The translations under genes were made by a program, and so were the position numbers. Positions 28,491 to 43,247 of a DNA stretch of 64,000 bases are shown here, in pieces. Under the pieces are notes generated by a model. The model was given only the letters and a program-made list of their open reading frames with translations, did not search any database and was not told the DNA's origin. The stretch's first letter is position 1, and every line of letters starts with the position of its first letter. This DNA comes from Escherichia coli phage vB_EcoS_Ace, in the sequence record MT833283.1. One strand, 5' to 3'.

Positions 28491-28519
28491 ATTATAACAA
28501 GAAATAAGAGAGAAGGCAA
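28491..28519 (-). promoter_or_regulatory. sigma70 promoter (TATAAT / TTGCCT)
   Basis: minus strand; 17-bp spacer. Confidence 0.55.
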
Positions 28520-28534
28520 ATGAATTTTTAAATT

Positions 28535-28609
28535 TGGTGCTCCCACCAGGAATCGAACCCGGTTCAGATGCTTACAAGGCAACTGCATCGCCAGCAATGC
28601 TTTAGGAGC
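28535..28609 (-). tRNA. tRNA-Thr (UGU)
   Basis: cloverleaf by hand; anticodon loop CTTGTAA; one mismatch in anticodon stem. Confidence 0.55.
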
Positions 28610-28776
28610 AATAAACCCATTATTTCAACGGGATTTCTTTTTCATATACAGGAGACTTATATGATATTACTGTCATAGCCAACTGCTGTAGAAATTCGAA
28701 TGAGAGTTTTAAACGCTCTTCTCCTAACCCAACCTCAACGCACTTCATTCGTTTATCTACTTTTAGCTTTAGATTA

Positions 28777-28998
28777 TCAGCCATCTTTGGATTCTCTTTG
28801 CTCAGCTATTGCTAGCCAGTCTGGTAAAAGAAACTTAGTACGAAATTCTTCATATGTTTCTTCTGGATGAAAGCTATAGCCTTGCTTTTCATCATTTAAT
28901 AAAACCGAACCATCTTCTTGCTCATAAGCTCTATATGTTTCACCAATAATTAAAACTCGTCTATTGGGGTTTTTATTACGAAACTCAAAAACGTCCAT
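28777..28998 (-). CDS. hypothetical protein (73 aa)
   Basis: ORF in track, between tRNA genes. Confidence 0.4.
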   Translation of the reverse strand: MDVFEFRNKNPNRRVLIIGETYRAYEQEDGSVLLNDEKQGYSFHPEETYEEFRTKFLLPDWLAIAEQRESKDG

Positions 28999-29014
28999 AA
29001 CGTTTCCTTATATT

Positions 29015-29089
29015 TGGTGCGGGATACGAGAGTCGAACTCGTGTCTACTGGTTGGAAGCCAGTTATTCTAGCCACTGAACTAATCACGC
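29015..29089 (-). tRNA. tRNA-Gly (UCC)
   Basis: cloverleaf by hand; anticodon arm ACTGG-CTTCCAA-CCAGT. Confidence 0.6.
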
Positions 29090-29095
29090 ATAAAT

Positions 29096-29171
29096 TGGCT
29101 GGAGAAGGAGGAATCGAACCTACCATTAACGGAGTCAAAGGCCGTTGTGCTAACCGTTACACTACTCTCCA
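29096..29171 (-). tRNA. tRNA-Gln (UUG)
   Basis: cloverleaf by hand; U1-A72, G73; anticodon loop CTTTGAC. Confidence 0.55.
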
Positions 29172-29177
29172 ATTGTT

Positions 29178-29253
29178 TGGCTGGGATGCCACGGATCGAA
29201 CGTGGAACCTTCGGAGTCAGAGGCCGACGATCTGCCAATTGATCTACATCCCA
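29178..29253 (-). tRNA. tRNA-Gln (CUG)
   Basis: cloverleaf by hand; U1-A72, G73; anticodon loop CTCTGAC. Confidence 0.55.
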
Positions 29254-29260
29254 ATAATTT

Positions 29261-29461
29261 TTATTCTACAGGAACCGTGGCAATTGGATCTGGTTCTTCT
29301 AGACGTTTACCATTATGGTCAACACGAATAATACCACAACCTTCACAGATTACAACAGCACCATAGCCTTCTTTAACTTCGGCTTCTGTAATCAGACCAG
29401 AAAGATCACCAGTATCTTTGCCCCACATATCGATAGAGCATTCTTTGCAGAAATCAGCCAT
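29261..29461 (-). CDS. Cys-rich small protein (66 aa)
   Basis: CKEC...CEGC pairs. Confidence 0.4.
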   Translation of the reverse strand: MADFCKECSIDMWGKDTGDLSGLITEAEVKEGYGAVVICEGCGIIRVDHNGKRLEEPDPIATVPVE

Positions 29462-29485
29462 ATTTTAGTTCCTGTATAAGTTAAT

Positions 29486-29560
29486 TGGTGCATCCTCAGG
29501 GAATCGAACCCCGATCGTAAAGTTCGTAGCTTTACATTCTTTCCGTTGAAATAAGGACGC
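29486..29560 (-). tRNA. tRNA-Arg (ACG)
   Basis: cloverleaf by hand; anticodon arm GTAAAG-CTACGAA-CTTTAC. Confidence 0.6.
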
Positions 29561-29565
29561 ATATT

Positions 29566-29642
29566 TGGGGTGGCTAGTGGAATTCGAATCCACATAGGCC
29601 TGATTCACAATCAGGATCATTAACCAATTATGATATAGCCAC
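29566..29642 (-). tRNA. tRNA-His (GUG)
   Basis: cloverleaf by hand; anticodon arm CCTGA-TTGTGAA-TCAGG; discriminator C. Confidence 0.6.
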
Positions 29643-30007
29643 AATTGAAAACTCGCAGGGTTAGCGAAACCATCCTCAAATAGCATTTTCTAGAATACTA
29701 ATCAAGTTATCTCCTATTGCACGCAGCTCAAGACGAGTACGAATTTTCAATTGTGGCGGCTCTCCGAAACTCTTCTACTCTAGCCTTAGCAGCTTACTCC
29801 CGAACGCATGTCGGGAAAGTCTTACTAAGAGCATCAAATAGCACCGTTACTCTTTGAGCCATTGAATATCAAGAAGCAGAAGGACTTGAACCTTCACGAG
29901 ATAGACCATTTATCTCAGCCTCGTTTTCGGGTATCTTATGAGGAGTGGATGTTCCCCTTACGCCCTTTAGGAAGCCCCGTCTACCGATTCCGGCATACTT
30001 CAAGATT

Positions 30008-30097
30008 TGGCAGAAGATAATGGAGTCGAACCATCACCATATCACTACAGCGGGCCGGTTTTCAAGACCGGTTACGTACCACTACGTCCTATCTTCT
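30008..30097 (-). tRNA. tRNA-Ser (UGA), class II
   Basis: long variable arm; anticodon arm CCGGT-CTTGAAA-ACCGG; acceptor AGAAGAT/ATCTTCT. Confidence 0.6.
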
Positions 30098-30452
30098 ATT
30101 GTTCGTATATTACAAAGTTTACAGATTCAGAGTAATAACCATTACTAGAACCATGCCATTTAACGGTTACACAGCCTTTAGCTGTGGCAAACTTATACCA
30201 TGTATGGGTTACTGAATCCCAATCTTCTGTAGCGTGTGTGATTACTTCCTCTGCTTCTATGATTGGATAACCTAAAAGGTCATGTAAATCACCAATAATA
30301 TCATCTATATGAACATCTTCACAGCAGTCCTGCTCATGATAAAACTTATAGTTCTTACCATCAGTACAAATGAAGATAAGAGTATCCTGGTCTTGGCATA
30401 CACTAGTAAAAATTTTGCCAAGCATTTCATTATAGATTGTCACTTCTGACAT
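30096..30452 (-). CDS. hypothetical protein (118 aa)
   Basis: ORF in track. Confidence 0.45.
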   Translation of the reverse strand: MSEVTIYNEMLGKIFTSVCQDQDTLIFICTDGKNYKFYHEQDCCEDVHIDDIIGDLHDLLGYPIIEAEEVITHATEDWDSVTHTWYKFATAKGCVTVKWHGSSNGYYSESVNFVIYEQ

Positions 30453-30474
30453 ATTAGTTTCCTAGTAAGTTGTT

Positions 30475-30566
30475 TGGCGGAAGAAGAGAGATTCGAACTC
30501 TCAAGCCTGCTTTCACAAGTCAGCCACTTTCCAAGCGGTTTTCGTCACCTATCGATTTGCTCTTCC
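30475..30566 (-). tRNA. class II tRNA, probably tRNA-Ser (GGA)
   Basis: acceptor and T-arm clear; anticodon arm assignment (loop TTGGAAA) tentative; atypical D-arm. Confidence 0.4.
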
Positions 30567-30745
30567 GTAGATCTCAGGATTAAATCATAAACTTCATTAG
30601 CGGATACTGGAAGTATGAGATTATACATCTTTTGGTCATACCTCTGACCATACTCTATAAACACATACTCTTTAGTTAATGTATTAACAGCTAACCAGAT
30701 ATCAGTTATAGGAGTTATAGGAGTTTTCATCATGAGTTGATCCAA
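30545..30745 (-). CDS. hypothetical protein (66 aa)
   Basis: ORF in track. Confidence 0.4.
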   Translation of the reverse strand: MDQLMMKTPITPITDIWLAVNTLTKEYVFIEYGQRYDQKMYNLILPVSANEVYDLILRSTEEQIDR

Positions 30746-30749
30746 TGTT

Positions 30750-30830
30750 TGGTAGGGATGGAGGGACTCGAACCCACACCCGAAGACTAGAACCTAAATC
30801 TAGCGCGTCTGCCAATTTCGCCACATCCCC
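30750..30830 (-). tRNA. tRNA-Leu (UAG) with short UUCG-type variable hairpin
   Basis: anticodon arm CTAGA-TTTAGGT-TCTAG; A73; 81 nt. Confidence 0.5.
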
Positions 30831-30837
30831 ATTTGTT

Positions 30838-30913
30838 TGGTGGAGTCACTCAGAATTGAACTGAGTTCCACTGCTTGCAAGGCAGTAAGTTTAACCAAAT
30901 AACCTATGACCCC
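30838..30913 (-). tRNA. tRNA-Ala (UGC)
   Basis: G3-U70 wobble; anticodon loop CTTGCAA. Confidence 0.6.
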
Positions 30914-30918
30914 GAATT

Positions 30919-30997
30919 TGGTGGAGAATAAGAGATTCGAACTCTTCTGATATCCTCGGTGCAAGCGAGGTGTCCACTCCAAGCAGACCCATTCCCC
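30919..30997 (-). tRNA. second tRNA-Ala (UGC)-like
   Basis: G3-U70; anticodon arm CCTCG-CTTGCAC-CGAGG; 7-nt variable loop. Confidence 0.45.
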
Positions 30998-31006
30998 AAA
31001 ATTTAT

Positions 31007-31270
31007 TTATTCTCTATACATATCGAGAACAGTTGCTACAATCTGAGCTTCTAGCCTAGCAATATCTTTATTCACTATATCAGATTCTACTACTAAGTGA
31101 TTATATATTGCTTCAGTTTTAGCAAGATCTACATCAGATAGTTTATTAAGACTATTATAATACTTAGCATTATTGCAACGTTTCTTCGTATCGGAAACTC
31201 GTTTATGGAGTGTTCTTTGTTGATAACGTTGCGACATTAGTTTCTTAGCCATATCTTTAAGATCAAACAT
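31007..31270 (-). CDS. hypothetical protein (87 aa)
   Basis: ORF in track; fed by promoter 31513-31541 through a ~235-nt leader. Confidence 0.45.
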   Translation of the reverse strand: MFDLKDMAKKLMSQRYQQRTLHKRVSDTKKRCNNAKYYNSLNKLSDVDLAKTEAIYNHLVVESDIVNKDIARLEAQIVATVLDMYRE

Positions 31271-31512
31271 AGATATTCCTTCTAGTTTACTAAGGCTATT
31301 AGCTCGGTGTGCGTATTACCCTCAGACATTAGCCAGTAGAGTATAACCGCTCTTCACAAACCCGATACACTATTCAGTTGCCACTGAATCTAGTGGACTA
31401 ATCTAGAACTTCTCCCAAGTCGTAGGGATCGTGCTTTTGGCAGCCAGCCCTAGGTCGAGCTAATACCTTAGTGAACTTTGATGAGGATTTCTCCTCATCA
31501 ATTTATATAAAT

Positions 31513-31541
31513 ATTATAACAAGAAATTAAGCATCAAGCAA
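31513..31541 (-). promoter_or_regulatory. sigma70 promoter (TATAAT / TTGCTT)
   Basis: minus strand; 17-bp spacer; overlaps 3' end of ORF 31534..31893. Confidence 0.55.
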
Positions 31542-31893
31542 GTACATTTTTAGCAATTTCTTGTAGTTCCTTAACGTCGCTAACGAAAAGGTAATCAGAG
31601 CTTCCAGAGTGCATACTCTGCATAACCACACCATCCTCTGGTGCATCTTCCTTCAAAGTAAGTCCTAACCAGAACTCGGCAAAACTAGGTGTTACCTCAC
31701 CTTGACTTGCCTTGAACACATCACCTTCTGTGATCTCTTGACCAGTAGAGAGTCCCATGTATGGTACGTTCAGATCAATATCTTTGTAGAATTCAGCTAG
31801 ATCTTGTTCGAAGTCCCAACCTTTAGAGATAGCGAACTCCATTGTTACATGACCGAAATAGCCTTGAACCTTGCTTGATAATTGCATTTGCAA
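31534..31893 (-). CDS. hypothetical protein (119 aa)
   Basis: ORF in track. Confidence 0.5.
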   Translation of the reverse strand: MQMQLSSKVQGYFGHVTMEFAISKGWDFEQDLAEFYKDIDLNVPYMGLSTGQEITEGDVFKASQGEVTPSFAEFWLGLTLKEDAPEDGVVMQSMHSGSSDYLFVSDVKELQEIAKNVLA

Positions 31894-31911
31894 TTCCTTA
31901 TTTTGAGTTAA

Positions 31912-31985
31912 TTGGTACTCGGTGATAGAATCGAACTATCGCAACCGCCGTGTAAAGACGGGGTTCTACCATTAAACTAACCGAG
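31912..31985 (-). tRNA. tRNA-Val (UAC)
   Basis: cloverleaf by hand; anticodon loop TTTACAC. Confidence 0.6.
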
Positions 31986-31989
31986 CAAT

Positions 31990-32067
31990 TTGGTGGATTG
32001 CCTGGGATTCGAACCCAGAACTGACGGATTAAAGGTCCGCTACTCTTATCCAGTTGAGCTAGCAATC
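31990..32067 (-). tRNA. tRNA-Lys (UUU)
   Basis: anticodon loop CCTTTAA (C at position 33). Confidence 0.55.
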
Positions 32068-32700
32068 CAATTTTTCTACTAATAATTTAAAAGCATCTAG
32101 TACAGGTACTTCAAACCACTCTCCAGATACTCTATAATCTTTAAGAAGATTATGTAATTCTTTCTCTGTACGTCTTTTATCCGACGAAAATCTGAAATGG
32201 TATAGCTTGTAGTCTCTATTAGGTGAATAAGTTTGATAACTTGCTAACCTCTCATTCACATCTATAGTCATACCTATTTTATACATGCCTGGCCATGCTG
32301 GATTACCAATTACATATATAAAACCTTCCGTTATAGGTATTTTATGCTCCCTTTTATACTTTAAGAGATTTAAGGCTGCCATTCGATAACAGAATCTAAA
32401 CTCTGAAGTTTTTAACTTACCTTCTTTACCCGAAATTTCGTTATATTTGCTCATATAAGCTCTTATGAGCTTATCATCTATAATGAAGTTATCAGGAAGG
32501 TTTAAGGCAGCTAAAACTTTATTAATTAGCATAGACTTCCTTAATAGAGTATCCTTAATAGAGTAGACTTTCAAGTAAGGATGATTGATTCCTAATTCCG
32601 CCATCACTTCGTTTTTATCTTTACCGTAATGGGCTAGTGGATACTTCTTACGATCTTTGCTAGATCGTAGATCACTTACCTTTAAACGAAATAATTTCAT
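32059..32700 (-). CDS. T5orf172-domain protein (GIY-YIG-like), putative homing endonuclease
   Basis: GFIYVIGN...YKIGMT motif; paralog of ORF 35847..36377; embedded in tRNA cluster. Confidence 0.6.
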   Translation of the reverse strand: MKLFRLKVSDLRSSKDRKKYPLAHYGKDKNEVMAELGINHPYLKVYSIKDTLLRKSMLINKVLAALNLPDNFIIDDKLIRAYMSKYNEISGKEGKLKTSEFRFCYRMAALNLLKYKREHKIPITEGFIYVIGNPAWPGMYKIGMTIDVNERLASYQTYSPNRDYKLYHFRFSSDKRRTEKELHNLLKDYRVSGEWFEVPVLDAFKLLVEKLDC

Positions 32701-32721
32701 TTCGAAATCCTTCTATTAAAT

Positions 32722-32799
32722 TGGAAGCGGGTGTAGGAATCGAACCTACCTCTTTCTAGCTTATGAGACTAGCGATCTCTACCAAAGATCTAACCCGCA
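32722..32799 (-). tRNA. tRNA-Met (CAU), possibly initiator-like
   Basis: anticodon loop CTCATAA; U1-U72 mismatch at top of acceptor stem. Confidence 0.55.
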
Positions 32800-32805
32800 A
32801 TTGTT

Positions 32806-32882
32806 TGGTCTCCAATGAAGGACTCGAACCTTCAACCCCACCGCCCCAAACGGTGTACTCTAGCCAATTGAGCTAATCGGAG
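32806..32882 (-). tRNA. tRNA-Pro (UGG)
   Basis: anticodon arm CACCG-TTTGGGG-CGGTG. Confidence 0.6.
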
Positions 32883-32891
32883 AATATTATT

Positions 32892-33089
32892 TTATTGTGG
32901 TGGAATATTAATATTCCGTCCATCTATGCAGTAAATGGTACTAGGAATTGTAGAGTGTATACTGAAGTTTTGTATTTTACTCTCTCCACCACAGAAATTT
33001 TTTGCAAATTCATACTCCTTGTTAATGGTTGAATCAAATTTAAAGCAACCAGTGAGTAAGAATACAGATAGTAACATAACTTTTTTCAT
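32892..33089 (-). CDS. small lipoprotein (65 aa)
   Basis: signal peptide with lipobox LTGC. Confidence 0.45.
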   Translation of the reverse strand: MKKVMLLSVFLLTGCFKFDSTINKEYEFAKNFCGGESKIQNFSIHSTIPSTIYCIDGRNINIPPQ

Positions 33090-33121
33090 TTTGCTTTCCT
33101 TCTCAACACTTTATAAGATAT

Positions 33122-33150
33122 ATTATACAGAGAATTAAGCAAAATAGCAA
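33122..33150 (-). promoter_or_regulatory. sigma70 promoter (TATAAT / TTGCTA)
   Basis: minus strand; 17-bp spacer. Confidence 0.6.
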
Positions 33151-33408
33151 ATGAATTTTTAATAAATTTACTTATTGCGTAGGCCACCTGGAGGGTTCAA
33201 GCCCCACGTCTGACAAAGAAGTTTGCGAGACTTCTCTTAAACGCCAGAATAGACCCGCCGATCTATCGGAACCTACTCAATAAGTAAACTTTCGTTTACC
33301 TACACCTACCTGGTCGGGAGGATTTTCAGCTACTAGAACCGGCCGGAAACTCATCGCCTTGTTTACCTTGTAGTCCCACTATAAGTGACGCGACCTACAA
33401 AGATTTTG

Positions 33409-33479
33409 TGCGGTCGGAGGGAATCGAACCCTCAACTTCTGGTTGGCAACCAAAAATTATACCTTTTAACTACGAACGC
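33409..33479 (-). tRNA. tRNA-Gly (GCC)
   Basis: anticodon arm TTTGG-TTGCCAA-CCAGA; one acceptor mismatch; CCA not encoded. Confidence 0.5.
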
Positions 33480-33692
33480 ATAATGAGTCAATCTAGGTAG
33501 GACTTGAACCTACTATCACTTGTGCGGATTTACGAGAACCATTCTTTCACTCGAATCGAACGAGCTTCTACCCTCGGCAAGCTGGTGTCCCCTCTCCACC
33601 ACGCTAGAATGATAATTAATGCCTGCTCCTTTGAATCAAGAAGTCCACCCCGGACTTTGGGTCTTTGCAGTACATCACGCTGCTCTGATGTT

Positions 33693-33769
33693 TGGTACAC
33701 CCACTAGGACTTGAACCTAGAACCTACCGCTTAAGAGGCGGTAGCTCTAACCAATTGAGCTATGGATGT
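33693..33769 (-). tRNA. tRNA-Lys (CUU)
   Basis: anticodon arm ACCGC-CTCTTAA-GCGGT. Confidence 0.6.
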
Positions 33770-33775
33770 ATAATT

Positions 33776-33850
33776 TGGCGGTACTAAGGGTAATCGAAAC
33801 CCTACCTCTCCCGTGACAGGGGAGTATCCTAACCGTTAGACTATAGTACC
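33776..33850 (-). tRNA. tRNA-Asp (GUC)
   Basis: anticodon arm CTCCC-CTGTCAC-GGGAG. Confidence 0.65.
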
Positions 33851-34371
33851 TTTAACTTTTTAAGTTCTTTAGGATTGCCTCCTAAAGAAGTGTATCTTTT
33901 ACGCAACCCATTATCTGAATAACTTAACTTTCTCCCTGCACCTGACCAGCCTAGCTCTCTTACTGTAACCTCGATTATTTCTTTAGTTATAGAGATATCT
34001 TTTGGTTTATGTGAAGAGCACTCCTGACATTTTTCAGCTTTTAAAGAAATAGCTTTACCACAATCCTTACAACAATTATCATGGTTTAGTTTACTAAATC
34101 CTTTATCTTTTAAAGTCTTTTCTAGATGCTGCTCTTTTGTGAGCACTTGTAAGTTATTAAGACCCCAATAAGTAATGTCTGTGTTAATATGGTCAACTTC
34201 TAGTTCAGAGTCTAGACTTGGTAATTTCTTAAATGCACATGCTAAAATCCTATGTACACCAGTATTTCTCTGTTGACCATTTTTATGGAGACGTATAGAT
34301 AAGTATCCGTAATTACTGGTTATTGGGGTTAGTATTTTGTTTGATTTGATACTAAATACTAACCCATCCAA
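33841..34371 (-). CDS. HNH homing endonuclease (176 aa)
   Basis: HNH motif (VHRILACAF...EVDHIN...N...H); within tRNA cluster, as for T5 F-Tfl endonucleases as recalled. Confidence 0.65.
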   Translation of the reverse strand: MDGLVFSIKSNKILTPITSNYGYLSIRLHKNGQQRNTGVHRILACAFKKLPSLDSELEVDHINTDITYWGLNNLQVLTKEQHLEKTLKDKGFSKLNHDNCCKDCGKAISLKAEKCQECSSHKPKDISITKEIIEVTVRELGWSGAGRKLSYSDNGLRKRYTSLGGNPKELKKLKVL

Positions 34372-34425
34372 ACTTACTAAGTACTTCTCAAACCCTGGAA
34401 TGGGTAAGGATATTCAGTGCATAAT

Positions 34426-34611
34426 TTACTCAGTTTTGAGTTTTTCGATAGCTTCCTCAACCTCTTTTAGAGCTTCACGACGCTCTACTTGACCTTGAAG
34501 TTCTTCAAGAAGTTCAGCTTTCAGAGCCTTAATAATATTACCACGAACCTTAATATTATTAATCAGATTATCACGATCAGCTTCTAGTCGAGCAATTGCA
34601 CGAGTTGTCAT
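34426..34611 (-). CDS. coiled-coil protein (61 aa)
   Basis: ORF in track. Confidence 0.35.
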   Translation of the reverse strand: MTTRAIARLEADRDNLINNIKVRGNIIKALKAELLEELQGQVERREALKEVEEAIEKLKTE

Positions 34612-34714
34612 ATCTATTTCCTCAGTTGTTAATGAAAAATGGTATCTGTGACTGAATTCGATATCAGCAATGATAGCTGGTTGGCTACCGGTTTACTTAA
34701 CTCTACACAGAATA

Positions 34715-34797
34715 TGGCGGGCCGTGTAGGATTCGAACCTACGTTGTCTTTCGACATGGATTAACAGTCCACCGCCAAACCGCTTGGCTAACGACCC
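34715..34797 (-). tRNA. class II-like tRNA with anticodon GUU (Asn)
   Basis: 3-bp D-stem and 13-nt variable hairpin (Tyr-like scaffold) but anticodon loop CTGTTAA and discriminator G. Confidence 0.45.
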
Positions 34798-34804
34798 TAA
34801 AATT

Positions 34805-34880
34805 TGGACGACCGCATGAGATTCGAACTCACATAAGGAGGTTTTGCAGGCCTCCGCCTAAGCCATTCAGCCAACGGTCG
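34805..34880 (-). tRNA. tRNA-Cys (GCA)
   Basis: anticodon loop CTGCAAA. Confidence 0.55.
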
Positions 34881-35058
34881 ATTTATCTTGCTTTTCGAGA
34901 TTAGTAAACTCTAGATCTATAGAATGTCCTATAGATCTAGCATAATAGCCATCTCCAGCATCATAGCCTGACTTACCACACTCACACATCTTAAACTCTC
35001 TATAACGAGTGAAAATATGTTCAGAACCACAACACTTAAATTTAACTAACATTTTCAT
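34867..35058 (-). CDS. Cys-containing small protein (63 aa)
   Basis: ORF in track; CC...CEC motif. Confidence 0.4.
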   Translation of the reverse strand: MKMLVKFKCCGSEHIFTRYREFKMCECGKSGYDAGDGYYARSIGHSIDLEFTNLEKQDKSTVG

Positions 35059-35297
35059 TTAACACGCTCCGGTAAATCTTCGAGTTTATATTGAGTAGCC
35101 ACATTAGCAGCATCTAGTAACAAACCCATATGTTTAAGAATCCTAGTGATAGCCTCGCCTTCTGCTTCTTCTACAAAAGTGCGTAGTTGAATGAAGTCAA
35201 TACCACCATCCATACCAGAGAAAATGTTAAGTAAGCGAAGCATTACCAGCTTACGTTCTTTCAGTTCTTGTTCTATCATGTTGCTTCTCCAGTTCAA
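35055..35297 (-). CDS. hypothetical protein (80 aa)
   Basis: ORF in track; promoter cassette upstream. Confidence 0.5.
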   Translation of the reverse strand: MNWRSNMIEQELKERKLVMLRLLNIFSGMDGGIDFIQLRTFVEEAEGEAITRILKHMGLLLDAANVATQYKLEDLPERVK

Positions 35298-35308
35298 TTT
35301 ATGTAATA

Positions 35309-35337
35309 ATTATACAGAACTTTAAGGATTTAAGCAA
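35309..35337 (-). promoter_or_regulatory. sigma70 promoter (TATAAT / TTGCTT)
   Basis: minus strand; 17-bp spacer. Confidence 0.6.
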
Positions 35338-35668
35338 CTACATTTTTCAGAAATTTGATGCCTTTCTTACACTTCTTATACCACCACGTCTTAGAGTTTT
35401 GTCGATTATGAACGCTTGAGATCTTCGCCTCATTAAAGTGCTTCAAAAGCATATAATCAGCCCCTAATTGCTCAAGTGGAATGTGATCTCCACTAGAATC
35501 ATAAACATAAGGCCGTTGATTAGCTCTGTAGTGATATACCTTATTAATCCGGCGTTTAAGCAAAGGACTAGTACAGTATATAAAGAAGTTTTTAGGATGC
35601 ATCAGCATCTCCTTCAAAATTGGTGCACCCCGTTGGTAACGATCCAACCTCTCAAGCTCTTCAGGCAA
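35330..35668 (-). CDS. hypothetical protein (112 aa)
   Basis: ORF in track. Confidence 0.45.
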   Translation of the reverse strand: MPEELERLDRYQRGAPILKEMLMHPKNFFIYCTSPLLKRRINKVYHYRANQRPYVYDSSGDHIPLEQLGADYMLLKHFNEAKISSVHNRQNSKTWWYKKCKKGIKFLKNVVA

Positions 35669-35786
35669 GCGCTAATCCATCTCAGCTAAAGGTGCAAATA
35701 TTGGCAAACCTACTAGGACTCGAACCTAGACCGTACGGTTTTGGAGACCGACATGCTGTCCAGTAACACTCTAGGAATGCAGAAAT

Positions 35787-35861
35787 TGGTATTCTCACAC
35801 GGATTCGAACCGAGATTTCTGGAGTGAAGTTCCAGTGACCTAACCATTAGTCGATGAGAAC
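35787..35861 (-). tRNA. tRNA-Glu (UUC)
   Basis: anticodon arm CTGGA-ACTTCAC-TCCAG; one T-stem mismatch. Confidence 0.5.
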
Positions 35862-36377
35862 ATTATATTCTTTTGCTTTCTCTAATTTTAGAAAAGACTT
35901 TAATTCTTCTAAGTTAATTATATTAAACCATTCACCTTCTAGTGCAAAAGGTTTAAGAAACTTATGTATTTTTGATTCTACCGCACGTCTATCGGAGTAG
36001 AATTGATAGTGCTCCAGAGTAAAATCTCTGTAAGGACTATATGTTTGATATGACCTCAGTCTTTCATGGACATTTACTGTCATACCTATTTTGTAACAAT
36101 TAGGCCATGCTTTATTGCCAATAACATATACCATACCTTCATACACAGGTAATTTATGCGCTTGTTTATACTGAATAAGATTTAAAGCAGAAATTCTATC
36201 ATACTGCATTATTCTTTTAGTATTCTTCTTTTCAGTACAAGTACCTTTTATCTCATTATAGATTTCTCGATATTTAGCAAGTAAATCTACATCAATAACA
36301 AAAGGTATAGTAGGAGAGATAATATCTCTTTCCTCCATAGCGCTAATTACTATTTTTGGTATATCTGGTATTGCCAT
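35847..36377 (-). CDS. T5orf172-domain protein (GIY-YIG-like), putative homing endonuclease
   Basis: EGMVYVIGN...YKIGMT...GEWF motifs; paralog of 32059..32700. Confidence 0.6.
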   Translation of the reverse strand: MAIPDIPKIVISAMEERDIISPTIPFVIDVDLLAKYREIYNEIKGTCTEKKNTKRIMQYDRISALNLIQYKQAHKLPVYEGMVYVIGNKAWPNCYKIGMTVNVHERLRSYQTYSPYRDFTLEHYQFYSDRRAVESKIHKFLKPFALEGEWFNIINLEELKSFLKLEKAKEYNVLID

Positions 36378-36398
36378 TTTTAGACCTTAGTTAAATTT

Positions 36399-36486
36399 GG
36401 TGGGCGTTAATGGAGTCGAACCACTCGAGTCGCAATGACCAGGGATTTACAATCCCCTCCGCTACCACTTACGGAATAAACGCCCA
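36399..36486 (-). tRNA. tRNA-Tyr (GUA), class II
   Basis: long variable arm; anticodon arm GGGGA-TTGTAAA-TCCCT; A73. Confidence 0.6.
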
Positions 36487-36616
36487 TATTTAGAAGTATT
36501 CAAAAAATTCTCATTTAAACACTTTTAAATATGTTTCCAAATTAGATAACTATTATATCAAGTTTTATGGCACTGAGCAAGTCAGATTTTAAAGAACTTG
36601 CTCAGTGCTGTATTAG

Positions 36617-36892
36617 TTAGTCGAACTTAGGAGTGACAGTTAAGGAGAACGGAAGTTCAAAAACTTCTTCACCCTCATCACTAACAGTGATTACCCGACC
36701 CTCTAACTTATTCATGCTAATCTCAACATCAGCCGTAGCATCTGGAGCCATGCCAGCTTCAACACATTTAGCTTTAATTTCCGGCAGAAGTTCTACATCA
36801 TAGAAATAAAGCCATTCAATCTCACCTTCCCAGCCTTCCCAGGATTTACAGATTGCACTTTCAATACCAGTTGTTATAACACGATTTTGCAT
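36617..36892 (-). CDS. hypothetical protein (91 aa)
   Basis: ORF in track; promoter cassette upstream. Confidence 0.5.
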   Translation of the reverse strand: MQNRVITTGIESAICKSWEGWEGEIEWLYFYDVELLPEIKAKCVEAGMAPDATADVEISMNKLEGRVITVSDEGEEVFELPFSLTVTPKFD

Positions 36893-36922
36893 TCGTTAAC
36901 TCCTTCATCAATTTATATAACT

Positions 36923-36952
36923 ATTATAACAGAAATCTTAAGTAAAAAGCAA
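36923..36952 (-). promoter_or_regulatory. sigma70 promoter (TATAAT / TTGCTT, 18-bp spacer)
   Basis: minus strand. Confidence 0.55.
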
Positions 36953-36982
36953 GTACATTTTTAAAATTTCTGCTTGGAGGAG

Positions 36983-37255
36983 TTAAACTCCTGATTCTTC
37001 AGCCAGATCAAGCCCAACCAACGTGATTGCCATAATAGCCGCGCCATGTTCCTTCTCTCCTAGCTCTTTAGCTTGAGTGAGAATATTGAGGAATTGCTTT
37101 TGAAAATCTGTAACTTCTTCTGTCATGCCTGCTTCAGCAATAATTCCTTTCAGCATAAAGCGTTGTGCCGTAATTTCAGGATTAGCCATTTGTTTTCTCC
37201 AGTTATTTAGAATGTAAGCCAAACTTAGGATCATAGCGATCATAAGTCGTACCAT
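36983..37255 (-). CDS. hypothetical protein (90 aa)
   Basis: ORF in track. Confidence 0.45.
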   Translation of the reverse strand: MVRLMIAMILSLAYILNNWRKQMANPEITAQRFMLKGIIAEAGMTEEVTDFQKQFLNILTQAKELGEKEHGAAIMAITLVGLDLAEESGV

Positions 37256-37341
37256 TAGTTGAAGCCTTGATGCTATGAAAACGACAGTACATAAATTTAC
37301 GTAGTGCTTTATTAATAGCTTTCATTTTATTTCCTTTTATT

Positions 37342-37418
37342 TGGTAGGGGTGGTGGGATTCGAACCCACAAAACCTGAATTTTAAGTCCAGTACCTATGC
37401 CAATTCGATTACACCCCC
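37342..37418 (-). tRNA. tRNA-Leu (UAA)-like with class I architecture
   Basis: anticodon arm CTGGA-CTTAAAA-TTCAG; A73; only 4-nt variable loop; D-arm atypical. Confidence 0.4.
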
Positions 37419-37426
37419 ATGTAATC

Positions 37427-37768
37427 TTAGCGAATCTCTAAACCCTGGAAATATCGAGGGAATGGAGAGCCAACTTCAAAATTAATACCCCAATTAAGTT
37501 CAACGAGTTCAGATTTATTAAGATCCAGACCATTACCTTCAAAGATATAGCCGTAAACCGCAGGGAACATAGCTGCTAGATCTTCCATATCGGAATGAGC
37601 ATTGTGTTCTTCACGAAACTGCTCAAACTCTTCAAAGAACTTTTCTAGGAAGAACTCTGGTACAATGAACGTTACTACATCTGTGGTATCATCAATACGA
37701 TAGATGGTAGCTTGGAATAGACCTACACCTAAAAGGTTGACTGCCGGAGTTGTAAAAATATCCATTTT
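37427..37768 (-). CDS. acidic hypothetical protein
   Basis: track ORF 37427..37876 trimmed to internal Met that overlaps the upstream stop. Confidence 0.4.
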   Translation of the reverse strand, partial: KMDIFTTPAVNLLGVGLFQATIYRIDDTTDVVTFIVPEFFLEKFFEEFEQFREEHNAHSDMEDLAAMFPAVYGYIFEGNGLDLNKSELVELNWGINFEVGSPFPRYFQGLEIR

Positions 37769-37952
37769 AGCCTCGCTCAATATCAAAAGAAATTGCATAA
37801 TTAGGGTTAATGCCAGAACCTTTACAGGTAGGACATTCCCATTCGTTATAGAAAATGTCCCCAGGTTCAGCATCATTTTGAGTGCCAGAACCCCAACATT
37901 CAGTACACATACATTCTTCTAGCTCTTGAGCAATTTCTCGAAAGCGTGACAT
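37767..37952 (-). CDS. zinc-ribbon protein (61 aa)
   Basis: CxxC...CxxC (CTEC, CPTC). Confidence 0.45.
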   Translation of the reverse strand: MSRFREIAQELEECMCTECWGSGTQNDAEPGDIFYNEWECPTCKGSGINPNYAISFDIERG

Positions 37953-37969
37953 ATAGTCTCCTAATTAAT

Positions 37970-38047
37970 TGGTGGCTCCCGGAGGATTCGAACCTACCTA
38001 CCTTTCGCTTATGAGGCGACGGCTCATACCAAATGAGCTTGAGAACC
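37970..38047 (-). tRNA. tRNA-Met or Ile-lysidine (CAU)
   Basis: anticodon loop CTCATAA; D-arm GCTCA...TGAGC. Confidence 0.55.
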
Positions 38048-38052
38048 AAATC

Positions 38053-38146
38053 TGGAGGAAGATGCCAGATTCGAACTGGCACACCGTGTTTCCACAGCTA
38101 CTGGCTGTTTAGCAAACAGCTCCCTTACCATTAGGGTTAATCTTCC
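38053..38146 (-). tRNA. tRNA-Ser (GCU), class II
   Basis: anticodon arm GCTGT-TTGCTAA-ACAGC; long variable arm; acceptor GGAAGAT/ATCTTCC. Confidence 0.65.
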
Positions 38147-38160
38147 GAATTTATGAATAT

Positions 38161-38189
38161 ATTATACAGAAAATTTCGACATTAAGCAA
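38161..38189 (-). promoter_or_regulatory. sigma70 promoter (TATAAT / TTGCTT) reading into tRNA cluster
   Basis: minus strand; 17-bp spacer; next downstream genes are tRNA-Ser(GCU) and tRNA-Met. Confidence 0.6.
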
Positions 38190-38197
38190 GTGAAATT

Positions 38198-38494
38198 TTA
38201 CTGAACCTTGCACTGATATACTTGTTTGATACGTGTCACTGACTTCTTAGTTGGATTGATAGAAGAACCCTGCCACCAACGTGATTCTGAGCTGAGAACA
38301 GTACCAGGAACAGCTTGTTCTTTTGGCAGAACAATATCAAAACACTGTTCACCCATATTATCTTTAATGTGCGACCAAATGTCTAGAGTAAATCGTTCTA
38401 GCTTATTACAAACTTGAACTTGACAAAGTTCCTGTTGTGGAGCAGCAAATACAGAAGTAGATACTAGAGTCAATGCAAGTACAATGCGTTTCAT
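38198..38494 (-). CDS. secreted protein
   Basis: track ORF trimmed to Met after SD; N-terminal signal peptide. Confidence 0.5.
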   Translation of the reverse strand: MKRIVLALTLVSTSVFAAPQQELCQVQVCNKLERFTLDIWSHIKDNMGEQCFDIVLPKEQAVPGTVLSSESRWWQGSSINPTKKSVTRIKQVYQCKVQ

Positions 38495-38524
38495 ATTTGA
38501 TTCCTCTCTCAAATTTATAAATAT

Positions 38525-38553
38525 ATTATACAGAAATTTTCTATATTAAGCAA
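38525..38553 (-). promoter_or_regulatory. sigma70 promoter (TATAAT / TTGCTT)
   Basis: minus strand; 17-bp spacer. Confidence 0.6.
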
Positions 38554-38571
38554 GTGAAAATTTCTGTATAA

Positions 38572-38591
38572 TAGCCCTCGCTTAGAGGGCT
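38572..38591 (-). terminator. GC hairpin, possible terminator after pnuC
   Basis: stem AGCCCTC/GAGGGCT immediately 3' of pnuC stop; U-tract weak. Confidence 0.35.
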
Positions 38592-38600
38592 ATAGCTACT

Positions 38601-39293
38601 TTATTTGTTAACGCGTACAAAGTATCCTTTATATGCCCCAAGAATAGAGTTACCTAAAAATACTAGCCACATTGCTAGGATTGCATAAGATGCACCTGTA
38701 GATTGAGCAGTTACAAGCCAAATGTATACAGTACCAATGTTAATAGCAATCCAGATCAGCCACTGCTCGGCATACTGCTTAACCATAAGCCACATAGCGA
38801 TCACACTACCTACCGCAGTAAATGCATCCAACATTGGGAATGGATCAGCCGTAGTAGTTAAGAAACTACCATACCCTAACGTGGCTACTGCTAGAATCCC
38901 TAGAGTCAGCAGAGCTTGGACTTTAGTCAGAATCTTAGTTGGAACATCTGGCAGATTACTTGGCTTATTTTTATGCCATAAGTACATTCCATAAAACTGC
39001 ATAGGAACGTAGTATAGCAGGTTTAGTGCAGCGTTACCATAAAGATCTTCGTTTAAAGCTGTAATACCATAGGTAAGAACACCAACTAAGCCCCAAATAT
39101 AGTTAGAAACACGTCCTTTAGCAACCAAAATAACACAAACTACGTTGGTTATCGCAGTAGCCCAATCTAGAGGTGTACCATTATAGTTAGCTAAACTAAT
39201 GAAGGCAACCGCTATGAACAGCCACAGATATTCCAGAGGTTTCCAGTTTTTAAAGTCATTTACGAGATAGTTAGTCATATTAAAACTCTCCAA
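38601..39293 (-). CDS. pnuC: nicotinamide riboside transporter (PnuC family)
   Basis: 230-aa multi-pass membrane protein with PnuC-like conserved blocks; immediately downstream of NadR-like gene. Confidence 0.6.
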   Translation of the reverse strand: MESFNMTNYLVNDFKNWKPLEYLWLFIAVAFISLANYNGTPLDWATAITNVVCVILVAKGRVSNYIWGLVGVLTYGITALNEDLYGNAALNLLYYVPMQFYGMYLWHKNKPSNLPDVPTKILTKVQALLTLGILAVATLGYGSFLTTTADPFPMLDAFTAVGSVIAMWLMVKQYAEQWLIWIAINIGTVYIWLVTAQSTGASYAILAMWLVFLGNSILGAYKGYFVRVNK

Positions 39294-39903
39294 CGTTAAA
39301 GTGATGAATCAGCCAGTCTACTGCGTTTACTGCTTCGTCCATACGAACTTTGTAGTCCGGGGAGTCGATGTACACAGTACGCCCTTCAGGGAACTGATTT
39401 GGAAATTCTTTCTTCATCTGCTCGAACAGTTCAGAAGTAATTGAACGATCGGAGTTAATACGTAAACCATCATCTACCCACTTGACAGTGGGCGCTAGAA
39501 CAATTACTAAATCGTAATGTTCTTCTTTTGCAATTGCTGTAACCACAGGGTTCTTACGATGTTCATAAAGTCTGTGGTAGAACTCAGTAATAAAAGCATT
39601 TGTATCCACAAACATGATCTTATTTGCAGTACGTTCTGCCTCAAACTCTAGCTCTTTGTGTCTGAACGCAATTTTACTATAATCTTCGCTGGTAAGCAGA
39701 TTTTCGTTACCAACTAGATCAACTTCACAATACGTTCGACCATATTCTTCTACCCACGAAGTGTTGTATAGCTTCGCAAGGTATTTTGTTAAAGTAGTCT
39801 TTCCTGAGCTTTCAGTCCCAATGATTACAACCCTACGCACGTAATCTTTACGAACTACGCTAGGAAGAAACTCCCAATACTTCATAAGATCATTACGAAT
39901 CAT
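39280..39903 (-). CDS. nadR: NadR-like protein, C-terminal ribosylnicotinamide kinase domain (part after in-frame TAG)
   Basis: Walker A GTESSGKTT; collinear with E. coli NadR C-terminal domain; same frame as 40117..40335 across a single TAG. Confidence 0.6.
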   Translation of the reverse strand: MIRNDLMKYWEFLPSVVRKDYVRRVVIIGTESSGKTTLTKYLAKLYNTSWVEEYGRTYCEVDLVGNENLLTSEDYSKIAFRHKELEFEAERTANKIMFVDTNAFITEFYHRLYEHRKNPVVTAIAKEEHYDLVIVLAPTVKWVDDGLRINSDRSITSELFEQMKKEFPNQFPEGRTVYIDSPDYKVRMDEAVNAVDWLIHHFNVGEF

Positions 39904-40116
39904 TGTAGCTGAGATTGGAACACGAGTCCGATCAGAATCTACAATATAATGACCAAACTTCGGCAGATATTTCTTATATTCTGCATCATAGTCTAGTTCG
40001 CTAGAGAAAATGGTGATCTCAGGTAAATGTCCGTAATTTTCATTAAGGATTCTAGCATATTCCGGCCAACCATTCGGATATTCAGGAATATCATCTTCAA
40101 TAATATACTCTACCTA

Positions 40117-40335
40117 AACGTGCTCAATATCCGCGTAAGTTTGTTCTAACCAACGAAGACGATTCTTTAACTGTAATACTTCCTGATCACGTGTGTTCTG
40201 CTTATCCAGCCAACGATTATCATGACTAACTACAATAATAACTCGTTCACACATAGTTGCTGCTGTATTTATTAGGTTAATATGGCCACGCGTTAAGGGT
40301 GCGAACTTACCAATTACTAGACCAGTCTTAATCAT
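40117..40335 (-). CDS. nadR: NadR-like protein, N-terminal NMN adenylyltransferase segment ending at in-frame TAG
   Basis: nucleotidyltransferase motif GKFAPLTRGHINLI; start set at Met after SD because the track ATG at 40386 lies inside the promoter. Confidence 0.55.
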
Positions 40336-40365
40336 GTTTGATTCCTCTCTCAAATTTATAAATAT

Positions 40366-40394
40366 ATTATACAGAGAATTTAGCATTCAAGCAA
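40366..40394 (-). promoter_or_regulatory. sigma70 promoter (TATAAT / TTGCTT) for nadR-like/pnuC
   Basis: minus strand; 17-bp spacer. Confidence 0.6.
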
Positions 40395-40598
40395 ACGAAT
40401 TTTTAAACTTTTTAGTGGAAAAATCTCAGGGCATTTAATGGTAGCACGTTGTTGCAGCAACAATAGTATGCGATTCTAAAGAATTAAATACTAAAGACCT
40501 TAGTTGAATAACTTATGGGCTTTTCTTTTGCCTTAAATACAGAAAAGCCCGCGCTCTCGGAGGGAACGCGGGCTTGGTTCGAAGATTACGTGTAACTA

Positions 40599-41543
40599 TT
40601 ACTTGTTACGCATATCCATGATCATTTGACCATCGTAGCCAGTACCAACAACAGTCTGCGGTACACCACCTTGGTATTTTTCAGCACGAAGCATTTCAAC
40701 TTCCAGCTGCTTCCAACGAATCATTTCAGGAGTAATGGTACGTTGCAGCGCGGCGTTAGCTTCAGCTTCTTTCTTAGCTGCGTACAGTTTAGCATCTGCG
40801 TCACGTTCGTTAGCTACTGCCATGTTTTCACGAGCAGAACGATCAGCTTCAGCTTGCTTAACTTTCTGCTGTGCTTCTTGTTCAACACGAGCCAATTCAG
40901 CTTTTGCAGCGTTAACTTGTTCTTCACGAACTTTAGTGTTCTGTACCTGTTCCATGATTACCGGTGGCAGAGTAATATCCTGAAGGAATACTTGCTTAAC
41001 CGTGTAACCATAAGGACGCGCGTACTCTTCTACCTCTTGCTGAATAGCAGTTTGCAGTTGAGCCTGAATCTTAGCGTCGAACAGATCTTGTGCTTTTGGT
41101 ACGGACTTACCAAACTCACGAATCGTAGACAGCATCTTCTCTTCAACGTACTTGTTCAGAGCTTGATCCTGAGTACCTGCGTTAACACGGTTCATAGGAG
41201 CTTTAGCACCATCAAACTGCAACATAACGGTAATGTCAACAGTAGACTTAAACTTATCCTGGCTAGGAACCTGAAGTTTATCCAGTTTCATGGAAATATC
41301 TTTCGTACTAAAAGTATCAAAAGAAGCAAATGGGTTAACAATATGGAAGCCTGGCAGTACAGGGTTCGGGCTAACTTTACCCAGGAAGGTCTGAGTCTTT
41401 ACAGTACCATCCTGAACAACTGTGTAGGAATTGAGAGCCAGAATAAGAGCACCAAGACCAACTACAGCACCAACACCCCAACGTTTAATAGTACGAATTA
41501 CTTTTTGCTCAGAAGTCAGTTCTTTAGTGTTTTTAGTAAACAT
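40599..41543 (-). CDS. SPFH/band-7 (prohibitin/HflK-like) membrane protein
   Basis: N-terminal TM, SPFH-like core, long Ala/Glu/Gln-rich coiled-coil C-terminus. Confidence 0.6.
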   Translation of the reverse strand: MFTKNTKELTSEQKVIRTIKRWGVGAVVGLGALILALNSYTVVQDGTVKTQTFLGKVSPNPVLPGFHIVNPFASFDTFSTKDISMKLDKLQVPSQDKFKSTVDITVMLQFDGAKAPMNRVNAGTQDQALNKYVEEKMLSTIREFGKSVPKAQDLFDAKIQAQLQTAIQQEVEEYARPYGYTVKQVFLQDITLPPVIMEQVQNTKVREEQVNAAKAELARVEQEAQQKVKQAEADRSARENMAVANERDADAKLYAAKKEAEANAALQRTITPEMIRWKQLEVEMLRAEKYQGGVPQTVVGTGYDGQMIMDMRNK

Positions 41544-41554
41544 ATATTTCCTTA

Positions 41555-41755
41555 TTATTTAGAAGAGTTAGCTACTACAGTTACTTTAGTTGCAGAAATA
41601 AACAGGCCAGCATCCACAGCAAATTCAGGAGCTTTGATATCTCCATTATGAAATATGACTATACCGGAGATTACCTCAAATGCTAGTGCTGTAACATCGG
41701 TGGTATTTACTTGTGAATGTTCACCTACTACTTTTACTATATATCGTGTTTTCAT
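41555..41755 (-). CDS. hypothetical protein (66 aa)
   Basis: ORF in track. Confidence 0.4.
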   Translation of the reverse strand: MKTRYIVKVVGEHSQVNTTDVTALAFEVISGIVIFHNGDIKAPEFAVDAGLFISATKVTVVANSSK

Positions 41756-41781
41756 TTTATTTTCCTAACAGTTAATAAAAT

Positions 41782-41856
41782 TGGCCGAGGTGACAGGATT
41801 TGAACCTGCATAAAGGAATTTAGAAGACTCCTGCCTATCCCTTAGACTACACCCCG
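41782..41856 (-). tRNA. tRNA-Arg (UCU)
   Basis: anticodon arm AGGAGT-CTTCTAA-ATTCCT; isolated from main cluster. Confidence 0.55.
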
Positions 41857-42374: not shown

Positions 42375-43247
42375 ATTGATTCCTTTTGTTAGGTATTTTT
42401 AAGAACTCTCGAAAAAGCTCTTAAAGATACCCGGCGGTAGGTAGGGTCAGCCCCCTCAGATTAAGCTCTGCAGCCCTTCCGTCAGACAATATCCTCCAGT
42501 TTAAGTCAGGGTGACTTTGTGGTTATGTTCTCCGTATGTGAAGAACTCGGTTAGGCTTAGGTCATGACTCCCAGCCTACTGCTGCCACTCAACAGGAATT
42601 ATCGCGAATTACCTGTACTATTGGGCACCATTAGTGACATCTCTCATGCCAGCATTTCCCACTCTCATATTCACGCGGTCTGGTAGAATCACACCTCCGA
42701 TTTTCGATGCGAAGCTGGATGCCTAGTCTCTATGTTAAACGGGGCACACACTAGGCAGTGATCCCGAGTTCCGAGTTTGGTTGAGGCCGTCAGGTTTCCT
42801 CGTGGTTTAGCTGTTTCGATTCTAACCTAATACTGATCAGGCGGCGTACCTCCTGAACCGTCATAGTATGTACTCCAGCAGCGAATGCTTATCCGGTATA
42901 AGCCCGAGTTATCCGATTCTTTCCGACCGCAGGATTCGAACCTGCATCTTCCACCAGTTACGGTTTAATATTACCGTTTATACTAGGACGGCAGTGTTAT
43001 CACATAAGTCAGTTCGACACCCCACTAACATAAACTAGAGAAGAGTTTACGAGATTTCGGGACAGCTCCCGTGTTTTCCGCAGATTTTCAGTTCCCTATC
43101 AATAGCAATAAGCGTTAGCTCGTAGCCTCTCTCAGAGTACTTACTAGTCTCCAACTCACCGACTCTATTCAGTGGAATAGCTATCCTAGTAGGAATCACT
43201 AAACTCACTCAGCGTAATCGGCTCGCTGTTCTCTACTTTATGAATTT

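Follow-up and report, generated by a model that had tools for sequence, protein, structure and literature searches.

A probable tRNA-Leu(UAA) without the class II variable arm in a T5-like phage, and the mostly phage-borne class I family to which it belongs

The element at 37342-37418 on the minus strand of the window (the whole 64,000-nt stretch of Escherichia coli phage vB_EcoS_Ace, MT833283.1, that was analysed) is probably a functional elongator tRNA-Leu(UAA) belonging to a class I family that is mostly phage-borne. ARAGORN predicted 29 tRNAs on the minus strand, spanning 28010-41856, which Rfam confirmed, adding two weaker matches in the window. An earlier sequence-only reading, which proposed the ARAGORN check, had stated that the canonical class II arm is missing from these Leu-anticodon tRNAs; ARAGORN called both genes (UAA at 37342-37418, UAG at 30750-30830), and the statement is fully true of Leu(UAA), with its 5-nt loop, and largely true of Leu(UAG), whose variable region is 9 nt long with a stem of at most 2 bp around a UUCG loop. 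It did not see that the feature marks a large conserved family and is not an oddity of one genome.

Leu(UAA) is 77 nt long including the encoded CCA and scored 57.4 bits against Rfam RF00005 (E ~1e-10; gathering score 29). It parses as 7/2/3/11/3/1/5/7/5/5/5/7/5/7/1/3, that is, GGGGGUG UA AUC GAAUUGGCAUA GGU A CUGGA CUUAAAA UUCAG GUUUU GUGGG UUCGAAU CCCAC CACCCCU A CCA. All four stems are intact, the acceptor stem having a G1.U72 pair and no G3:U70, and the D stem comprising A10-U25, U11.G24 and C12-G23. The D loop contains A14, A15, G18G19 and A20a, and U8, A14 and the U54/U55/C56/A58 bases of the T loop (UUCGAAU) are all present; the tertiary pairs A26 with G44 and A15 with U48 are in line with family-wide covariation. 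The variable region has no long arm of the class II kind (more than 10 nt, forming a stem-loop) and shows the type I combination of a Leu anticodon with a 4-5-nt loop; the loop, given as 4 nt in the sequence-only reading, in fact comprises 5 nt (positions 44-48). A73 was correctly assigned to both Leu tRNAs (A at 37345 in UAA and at 30753 in UAG). The suggestion that a class II geometry might be hidden in an alternative fold was followed up for Leu(UAA) and such a refold is excluded, the 74-nt body being too short with every other arm at full length. Single-sequence minimum free energy (MFE) folds were not cloverleafs (z-scores -1.2 and -0.7), but MFE folding is uninformative for tRNAs and covariation was therefore preferred as structural evidence.

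The D arm, earlier described as irregular, is of the class II tRNALeu type (3-bp stem, 11-nt loop, G18G19 following A14 A15 N16 N17, and A20a). The same 3-bp stem and 11-nt loop (RAAYYGGYAKA) occur in leuZ (UAA) and leuW (UAG) of E. coli and Salmonella, the E. coli D arms reading GUG GAAUCGGUAGA CAC and GCG AAAUUGGUAGA CGC, respectively, and the T5 Leu(UAG) has the same layout. U8, A14, A15, G18G19, A20a, U48 and A73 are common to leuZ, leuW and the window tRNA, and leuZ additionally shares with Leu(UAA) the G1.U72 pair and the A36-A37-A38 motif of the anticodon loop. The differences lie in the end of the D loop, which is AUA in the class I family and AGA in leuZ and leuW, and in the variable arm, which has 15 nt in leuZ and 13 nt in leuW as against 5 nt (UAA) and 9 nt (UAG) in the window. 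The leucine-type D arm is our main reason to infer that Leu(UAA) has retained its leucine identity.

Table 1. Positions of the tRNA features discussed, numbered from the first base of the window.
Feature	Position	Strand	Details
tRNA-Leu(UAA), class I (armless)	37342..37418	-	74-nt body + encoded CCA; ARAGORN, Rfam
Leu(UAA) D arm, leucine-type	37393..37409	-	3-bp stem AUC/GGU + 11-nt loop GAAUUGGCAUA
Leu(UAA) anticodon UAA	37382..37384	-	loop CUUAAAA; U33, A36-A37-A38 motif
Leu(UAA) variable loop GUUUU (G44...U48)	37370..37374	-	5 nt replacing class II arm
Leu(UAA) discriminator A73	37345	-	A
tRNA-Leu(UAG), truncated variable arm	30750..30830	-	78-nt body + CCA; ARAGORN, Rfam
Leu(UAG) variable region UCUUCGGGU	30778..30786	-	9 nt, mini-hairpin around UUCG
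tRNA-Lys(UUU), C33	31991..32068	-	loop CCUUUAA, C at 32034
tRNA-Glu(UUC), C33	35787..35861	-	loop ACUUCAC, C at 35829
tRNA-Ile(GAU), C33	28090..28165	-	loop CCGAUAA, C at 28132; absent from the sequence-only reading
tRNA-Phe(GAA)	35621-35695	-	Rfam 33.4 bits; missed by ARAGORN
tRNA-Asn(GUU)	34715-34797	-	83 nt; 13-nt variable hairpin GUC-GAAA-GAC, ~34743-34755
tRNA-Ala(UGC), two adjacent, dissimilar genes	30838-30913 and 30919-30997	-	76 and 79 nt
Weak tRNA-like match	42921-42992	-	Rfam 29.7 bits; canonical T arm, odd anticodon region

The 1.4 kb around Leu(UAA) showed 99.1% identity to Salmonella phage vB_SenS_SB13 and 93-98% identity to many Epseptimavirus/T5-like phages infecting Salmonella or E. 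coli, with 98.4% for Bas29 SuperGirl, which carries the gene; the window is thereby identified as a T5-like (Demerecviridae) tRNA region. In 292 phage records, nearly all of which annotate it as tRNA-Leu, the 77-nt gene itself was conserved at 99% identity or more, while its 1.4-kb surroundings were mostly 80-95% identical in the same phages, a pattern that points to strong purifying selection on the gene. The rare variants fit selection for the fold: in phC17, wobble pairs have become Watson-Crick pairs (U11.G24 to U-A and G1.U72 to G-C), and in EC148 position 20 of the D loop alone has changed. T5 has no Leu(UAA) gene, its sole Leu tRNA being an 85-nt Leu(UAG) that its annotators noted to be convertible to an amber suppressor, and mutants of T5 that have lost many tRNA genes remain viable (PMC12409363); Leu(UAA) is thus not essential in laboratory hosts. 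A host origin was not upheld, as BLAST of 5,426 E. coli genomes returned no homologue, only 23-nt T-arm matches on plasmids. In Escherichia phage phiAPCEc03 (L285, KR422353.1 1293-1369), in which the tRNA cluster is reduced, an unannotated mosaic of class I Leu(UAA) and Ob_P-type class I Leu(UAG) segments was found, with acceptor strands that do not pair; it looks like the product of recombination or gene conversion between two paralogues.

BLAST also reached more distant matches in Vibrio phage JSF12, Obesumbacterium phage Ob_P and Aeromonas phage LAh_8, each a 77-nt Leu(UAG) gene that shares the D loop and has a variable loop of 5 nt. IMG/VR was scanned with the pattern GAATWGGYATA-N9-YT-anticodon-N8-TTYTGNGGGTTCGA, which fixes four elements (D loop, Y32-U33, variable loop and 5' T arm) and leaves A73 unconstrained, so that conservation of the D loop, variable loop and 5' T stem among the matches is not independent evidence. 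The scan yielded at least 120 stretches with UAR anticodons, 97 with SAR anticodons, one in which position 35 was not A and none with NAY anticodons, giving in total at least 217 stretches and at least 152 unique 74-nt sequences. The 152 unique matches listed carried the anticodons CAA (53), UAG (48), UAA (40), CAG (6), GAG (4) and GUG (1), with A73 in 151 and an encoded CCA in 134; the phenylalanine anticodon GAA, though permitted by the pattern, had no match on the scaffold in IMG/VR. An origin of Leu(UAA) from tRNA-Phe by a change of GAA to UAA was rejected, given the Leu-type D arm, the complete absence of GAA from the scaffold and the separate tRNA-Phe gene at 35621-35695. The lone non-Leu member (viral locus L221, 10425-10471, minus strand) combines the anticodon GUG with C73, the histidine discriminator, its anticodon and discriminator having switched jointly to the histidine combination.

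Covariation within the family supports the class I cloverleaf. Among the 88 UAA/UAG members listed, 98.6% of cells were paired in this fold compared with 32-46% when the partners were slid by 1-3 columns, 472 cells carried double changes and 16 of the 20 pairs showed compensatory change, including pairs of the D stem. RNAalifold independently returned the class I cloverleaf from the family alignment; both marks expected of an Rfam RF00005 member, a score above threshold and helices with compensatory change, were found. Tertiary positions covaried as in real L-shaped tRNAs: among the 152 sequences listed, G9 accompanied G12:C23 in 127/127 and A9 accompanied C12:G23 or A12:U23 in 24/25, and positions 26/44 were A/G in 84 and G/A in 57.

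These data bear on the possibility that Leu(UAA) is a decaying or non-translational tRNA-like element (a pseudogene, a processing signal between small ORFs, a decoy or a recombination site), which we regard as very improbable. The T5 tRNA region does include several annotated tRNA-like stable RNAs of unknown function, weak tRNA-like matches occur in the window, phiAPCEc03 harbours the non-pairing mosaic, and the single-sequence MFE fold is not a cloverleaf. However, the four intact stems are accompanied by a canonical T loop, U8, A14, G18G19, U33, A73 and CCA, the gene is near-invariant across hundreds of genomes with diverging flanks, and compensatory and tertiary covariation together with anticodons restricted to Leu are the outcome expected if decoding and charging were under selection.

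Run with the anticodon left open on one genome per species for 185,579 bacterial species, the scaffold pattern gave 61 stretches, all with Leu anticodons (CAG 15, CAA 14, UAG 14, AAG 11, UAA 6, GAG 1) and 60 with A73, mostly on Clostridia MAG contigs or in tRNA arrays; none came from Enterobacteriaceae. In Tumebacillus avium (NZ_CP021434.1; L228, L239, L281), multi-copy class I Leu(CAA) genes lie within rRNA-5S-tRNA operons and adjoin an 86-nt class II Leu(UAA), and several copies occur within strings of tRNA genes in Tumebacillus lipolyticus and Effusibacillus consociatus (L231, L259, L267; L224, L238, L280). The density of the scaffold was at least 217 stretches in 2.9 M viral contigs compared with 61 in 32.2 M genome contigs. 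Judged from these genomic settings, the scaffold is a genuine leucine tRNA that serves as a housekeeping gene in a few Bacillota and is far commoner per contig in viruses. The presence of UAA, UAG, CAA, CAG, GAG or AAG anticodons on all but one (His-like, with C73) of 213 unique or listed copies is indirect but strong evidence that the scaffold specifies leucine. Class I tRNALeu is already known from mitochondria and Streptomyces coelicolor, whereas the phage family is little described; the literature searched contained no description of it, or of the T5-like Leu(UAA) as class I.

In the viral loci, the lengths of Leu tRNAs were bimodal (74-75 nt and 81-85 nt, with some intermediates), and in the 70 loci with both class I and longer Leu tRNAs an anticodon was shared between them in only 5, suggesting that the two forms in one locus act as complementary isoacceptors. 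Long arms were kept in 173 of 177 unique Ser and 57 of 68 Tyr tRNAs from the 216 viral loci with class I Leu. Seryl- and tyrosyl-tRNA synthetases use the long arm, and its retention beside class I Leu provides an internal control that fits the arm being dispensable for leucine.

Studies of E. coli leucine identity found A73 to be crucial and, by SELEX, A15-U48, G18G19 and A20a to be essential, whereas neither the sequence nor the folding of the long arm correlated with leucylation, and both the variable arm and the anticodon arm could be dispensed with (PMC9976931). Leu(UAA) contains every element reported as required by E. coli LeuRS (PMC9976931, PMC6614811), namely A73, A15-U48, G18G19, A20a, U8:A14 and the T-loop bases. 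Minimalist E. coli tRNALeu constructs without variable and anticodon arms were charged by EcLeuRS given A73 and the D/T-loop contacts (PMC9976931); the phage tRNA keeps these elements, although it is a natural conserved gene and the constructs were engineered in vitro substrates. Leu(UAA) is a natural test case for identity rules drawn from engineered minimal tRNAs. Animal mitochondrial tRNALeu(UUR) is likewise class I with the anticodon UAA and, having no long arm, takes its identity from A73 and A14 (PMC9976931); however, it is floppy and is served by a dedicated mitochondrial LeuRS, whereas the phage tRNA, with its fully canonical core, has to rely on a bacterial LeuRS whose substrates include class II tRNAs.

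The closest bacterial precedent, the type I tRNALeu(CAA) of S. coelicolor, also has a 5-nt loop, the minimum length for good charging in that study, and occurs alongside class II isoacceptors with a single LeuRS (PMC6614811). It carries C48, and ScoLeuRS does not use A73 for identity (PMC6614811), whereas the phage family keeps A15/U48 and a near-invariant A73; the genome scan with the scaffold pattern did not pick up the S. coelicolor tRNA. That tRNA could not be charged by E. coli LeuRS, which was called type II-only (PMC6614811), but since the tRNA has C48 in place of U48 the negative result may not transfer to Leu(UAA). The EcLeuRS-tRNALeu crystal structure, as summarised in PMC6614811, has the C-terminal domain in contact with variable-arm nucleotides 47f-47i, so that an armless substrate may be charged less efficiently. 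A short-loop tRNALeu(UAG) has also been mentioned in passing, as unlike the chromosomal isoacceptor, in mycobacterial tRNA clusters, where it lies in a mobile-looking array with an HNH endonuclease gene (PMC6582537); the host belongs to another phylum.

That Leu(UAA) is charged by a synthetase other than LeuRS, with UUA read as another amino acid or deliberately mischarged, appears extremely unlikely. Its class I shape removes the feature that textbooks tie to tRNALeu, and EcLeuRS failed on another type I tRNALeu; nevertheless, by established identity rules, in part those in PMC9976931, a tRNA with the anticodon UAA lacks the anticodon determinants of the other A73-type class I systems (Phe G34; Lys U35, U36; Ile, Val, Met), G3:U70 is absent, and the scaffold tracks six Leu anticodons and never GAA, which is expected only if the body specifies leucine. 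Enterobacterial LeuRS probably charges a natural class I tRNALeu. In textbooks and in the 2019 S. coelicolor study, bacterial tRNALeu is class II apart from rare exceptions and E. coli LeuRS is type II-only; the presence of the identical gene in hundreds of E. coli and Salmonella phages, with at least 150 distinct viral relatives, would imply that natural class I tRNAs are routine substrates of ordinary gammaproteobacterial LeuRS enzymes.

On the reading of Leu(UAA) as a functional elongator, the gene would be transcribed in the leftward tRNA/small-ORF units of the T5-type tRNA region. It is flanked by small same-strand ORFs without a nearby terminator, as in the T5 tRNA region; a scan of 36300-38400 gave 3 promoter-like sites against 5.5 expected and found no terminators. 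The transcript would be processed by host enzymes, charged by the host's single LeuRS and modified in the anticodon loop by host MiaA and TrmL, the latter of which does not need the long arm (PMC4615657). The mature tRNA would decode UUA (and UUG), with Leu(UAG) predicted to do the equivalent job for CUA. The arm would be dispensable here because it is not a LeuRS identity element, and the Ser and Tyr tRNAs of the same genomes would keep theirs where the arm contributes to identity. Among Leu codons in 26 long window ORFs, UUA made up 21.7% and CUA 17.4%, compared with roughly 13% and roughly 4% in E. coli, and the phage G+C content is 39.6%; the two phage Leu tRNAs thus read A-ending codons that are used more by the AT-rich phage than by its host.

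The second Leu tRNA, Leu(UAG), is 81 nt long (Rfam 53.5 bits, gathering 29; E ~1e-9). Its 9-nt variable region (UCUUCGGGU, 30786-30778) had been correctly measured, and its T stem has a U50.U64 mismatch. Apart from the arm, its body is identical to that of the gene in Klebsiella phage Boggle_ER46 and close to that of the Salmonella phage UTK0010 gene, the U50.U64 mismatch being common to these relatives, which have 15-nt variable regions (UGGUGAAAUAUCCGU and CGUUGAAAUAUACGU, respectively) compared with UCUUCGGGU in the window; the 9-nt form is identical in 139 records. By these comparisons Leu(UAG) is, to all appearance, a class II tRNA caught part-way, with its arm cut from 15 to 9 nt. The equivalent cluster position is occupied in T5 by an unrelated gene of 85 nt and in Ob_P by a class I gene of 77 nt, and hence both truncation in place and gene replacement have occurred. 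The D arm and anticodon loop of Leu(UAG) match those of E. coli leuW almost base for base. G37, which is usual in bacterial Leu tRNAs reading CUN, is kept by the 81-nt Leu(UAG) of the window, and class I Leu(UAG) mostly has A37 (39 of the 48 listed).

The simplest view of arm loss is neutral streamlining followed by horizontal spread. An alternative is that armlessness is a selected counter-defence, the arm having been removed as a handle or cut site of host tRNA-directed toxins and nucleases, so that an armless Leu tRNA would sustain UUA/CUA decoding once the host class II tRNALeu is inactivated; we consider this rather unlikely. Precedents exist for the long arm as a target, as MenT3 depends on arm length and orientation, AbiEii appears to favour class II tRNAs and human SLFN11 is described as preferring type II tRNAs. 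The alternative would also accommodate the far greater density of the scaffold in viral than in genome contigs, the independent shortening of the arm in Leu(UAG) of the same lineage, and the presence in the same cluster of C33 anticodon-loop oddities and T5-type resistant tRNAs. The phage enrichment could, however, reflect mere horizontal spread of compact tRNA genes, the Tumebacillus rRNA operons use the scaffold as a housekeeping tRNA, making a defence context unnecessary, and no known bacterial effector targets the tRNALeu variable arm. Those bacterial Schlafens that have been characterised cleave within the anticodon arm or the T loop, show no class II preference and were on this account rejected as a class II-specific threat. 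RecA-dependent anticodon nuclease(s) of Salmonella cut host tRNALeu(UAG) in the anticodon loop; they were rejected as a cause of arm loss, the anticodon loop of the window Leu(UAG) being identical to that of E. coli leuW.

The T5 tRNAs acting against host immunity, tRNALys(UUU) against AriB of PARIS and tRNATyr against PtuAB of Retron-Eco7/Septu, are phage versions of host tRNAs encoded in this same cluster. Their structural differences, including a changed tRNATyr variable loop, block the defence nuclease, and resistance has been demonstrated; the armless tRNALeu, in contrast, has no known cognate nuclease. Phages might be spreading the armless tRNALeu as a portable, defence-proof leucine decoder, a proposal that we advance as doubtful. 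It would have LeuRS ignoring the arm, while SerRS, TyrRS, PtuAB, nucleotidyltransferases of the MenT/AbiEii type and Schlafen-type RNases use class II arms, so that deletion of the arm would be free in terms of charging, would carry no risk of cross-charging in a new host and would go unseen by arm-directed immunity. If this were true, a class I tRNALeu would be among the natural substrates of enterobacterial LeuRS, at odds with the description of the enzyme as type II-only. Leu(UAA) is a candidate case of tRNA-targeting immunity shaping phage tRNAs by loss of a domain and not by point changes in the anticodon loop, and it might also offer synthetic biology a compact, orthogonal-looking Leu scaffold. 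If charging is ordinary and no effector tells the two forms apart, it would be merely a compact variant of a housekeeping molecule.

The sequence-only reading had also reported C in place of U at position 33 of Lys(UUU) and Glu(UUC), and this was borne out (C at 32034 and 35829, respectively); tRNA-Ile(GAU) is a third case (Table 1). The T5 tRNA-Lys and tRNA-Glu have U33, and the CCGAUAA loop occurs in 7 other phage Ile(GAU) tRNAs. Across the surveyed viral loci, C33 was present in 33 of 2,437 unique phage tRNAs, mainly Val(GAC), Ile(GAU), Glu(UUC) and Lys(UUU), and CCGAUAA and CCUUUAA were among the recurring loops; the C33 feature is real, rare and recurrent. In tRNALys, position 33 adjoins the cut site of PrrC-type anticodon nucleases, so that a link between C33 and nuclease evasion is plausible.

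Several other tRNAs of the cluster were unusual. The tRNA-Phe(GAA) matches T5 tRNA-Phe as far as the T arm, where its loop is AUCGUUA and not UUCAAUU, positions 54 and 58 being swapped to A54/U58; with this gene included, the cluster covers all 20 amino acids. The tRNA-Asn(GUU), normally a class I tRNA, has gained an arm, the opposite of what was seen for Leu (T5 tRNA-Asn has 78 nt), and four other long Asn tRNAs were present in the surveyed viral loci. The two tRNA-Ala(UGC) genes lie side by side; a 2026 paper reported that a bacterial Schlafen cleaves T5 tRNA-Ala(UGC). The weak tRNA-like element at 42921-42992 has a close relative in IMG/VR locus L049 (14152-14225), which ARAGORN called as 'Ser(ACU)'. 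Finally, 31 unique phage tRNA-Ile(UAU) sequences of 92-99 nt had class I bodies apart from an insertion of ~20-25 nt in the variable region (IMG/VR examples: L010 4722-4815, L014 5458-5550 and L023 12285-12379).
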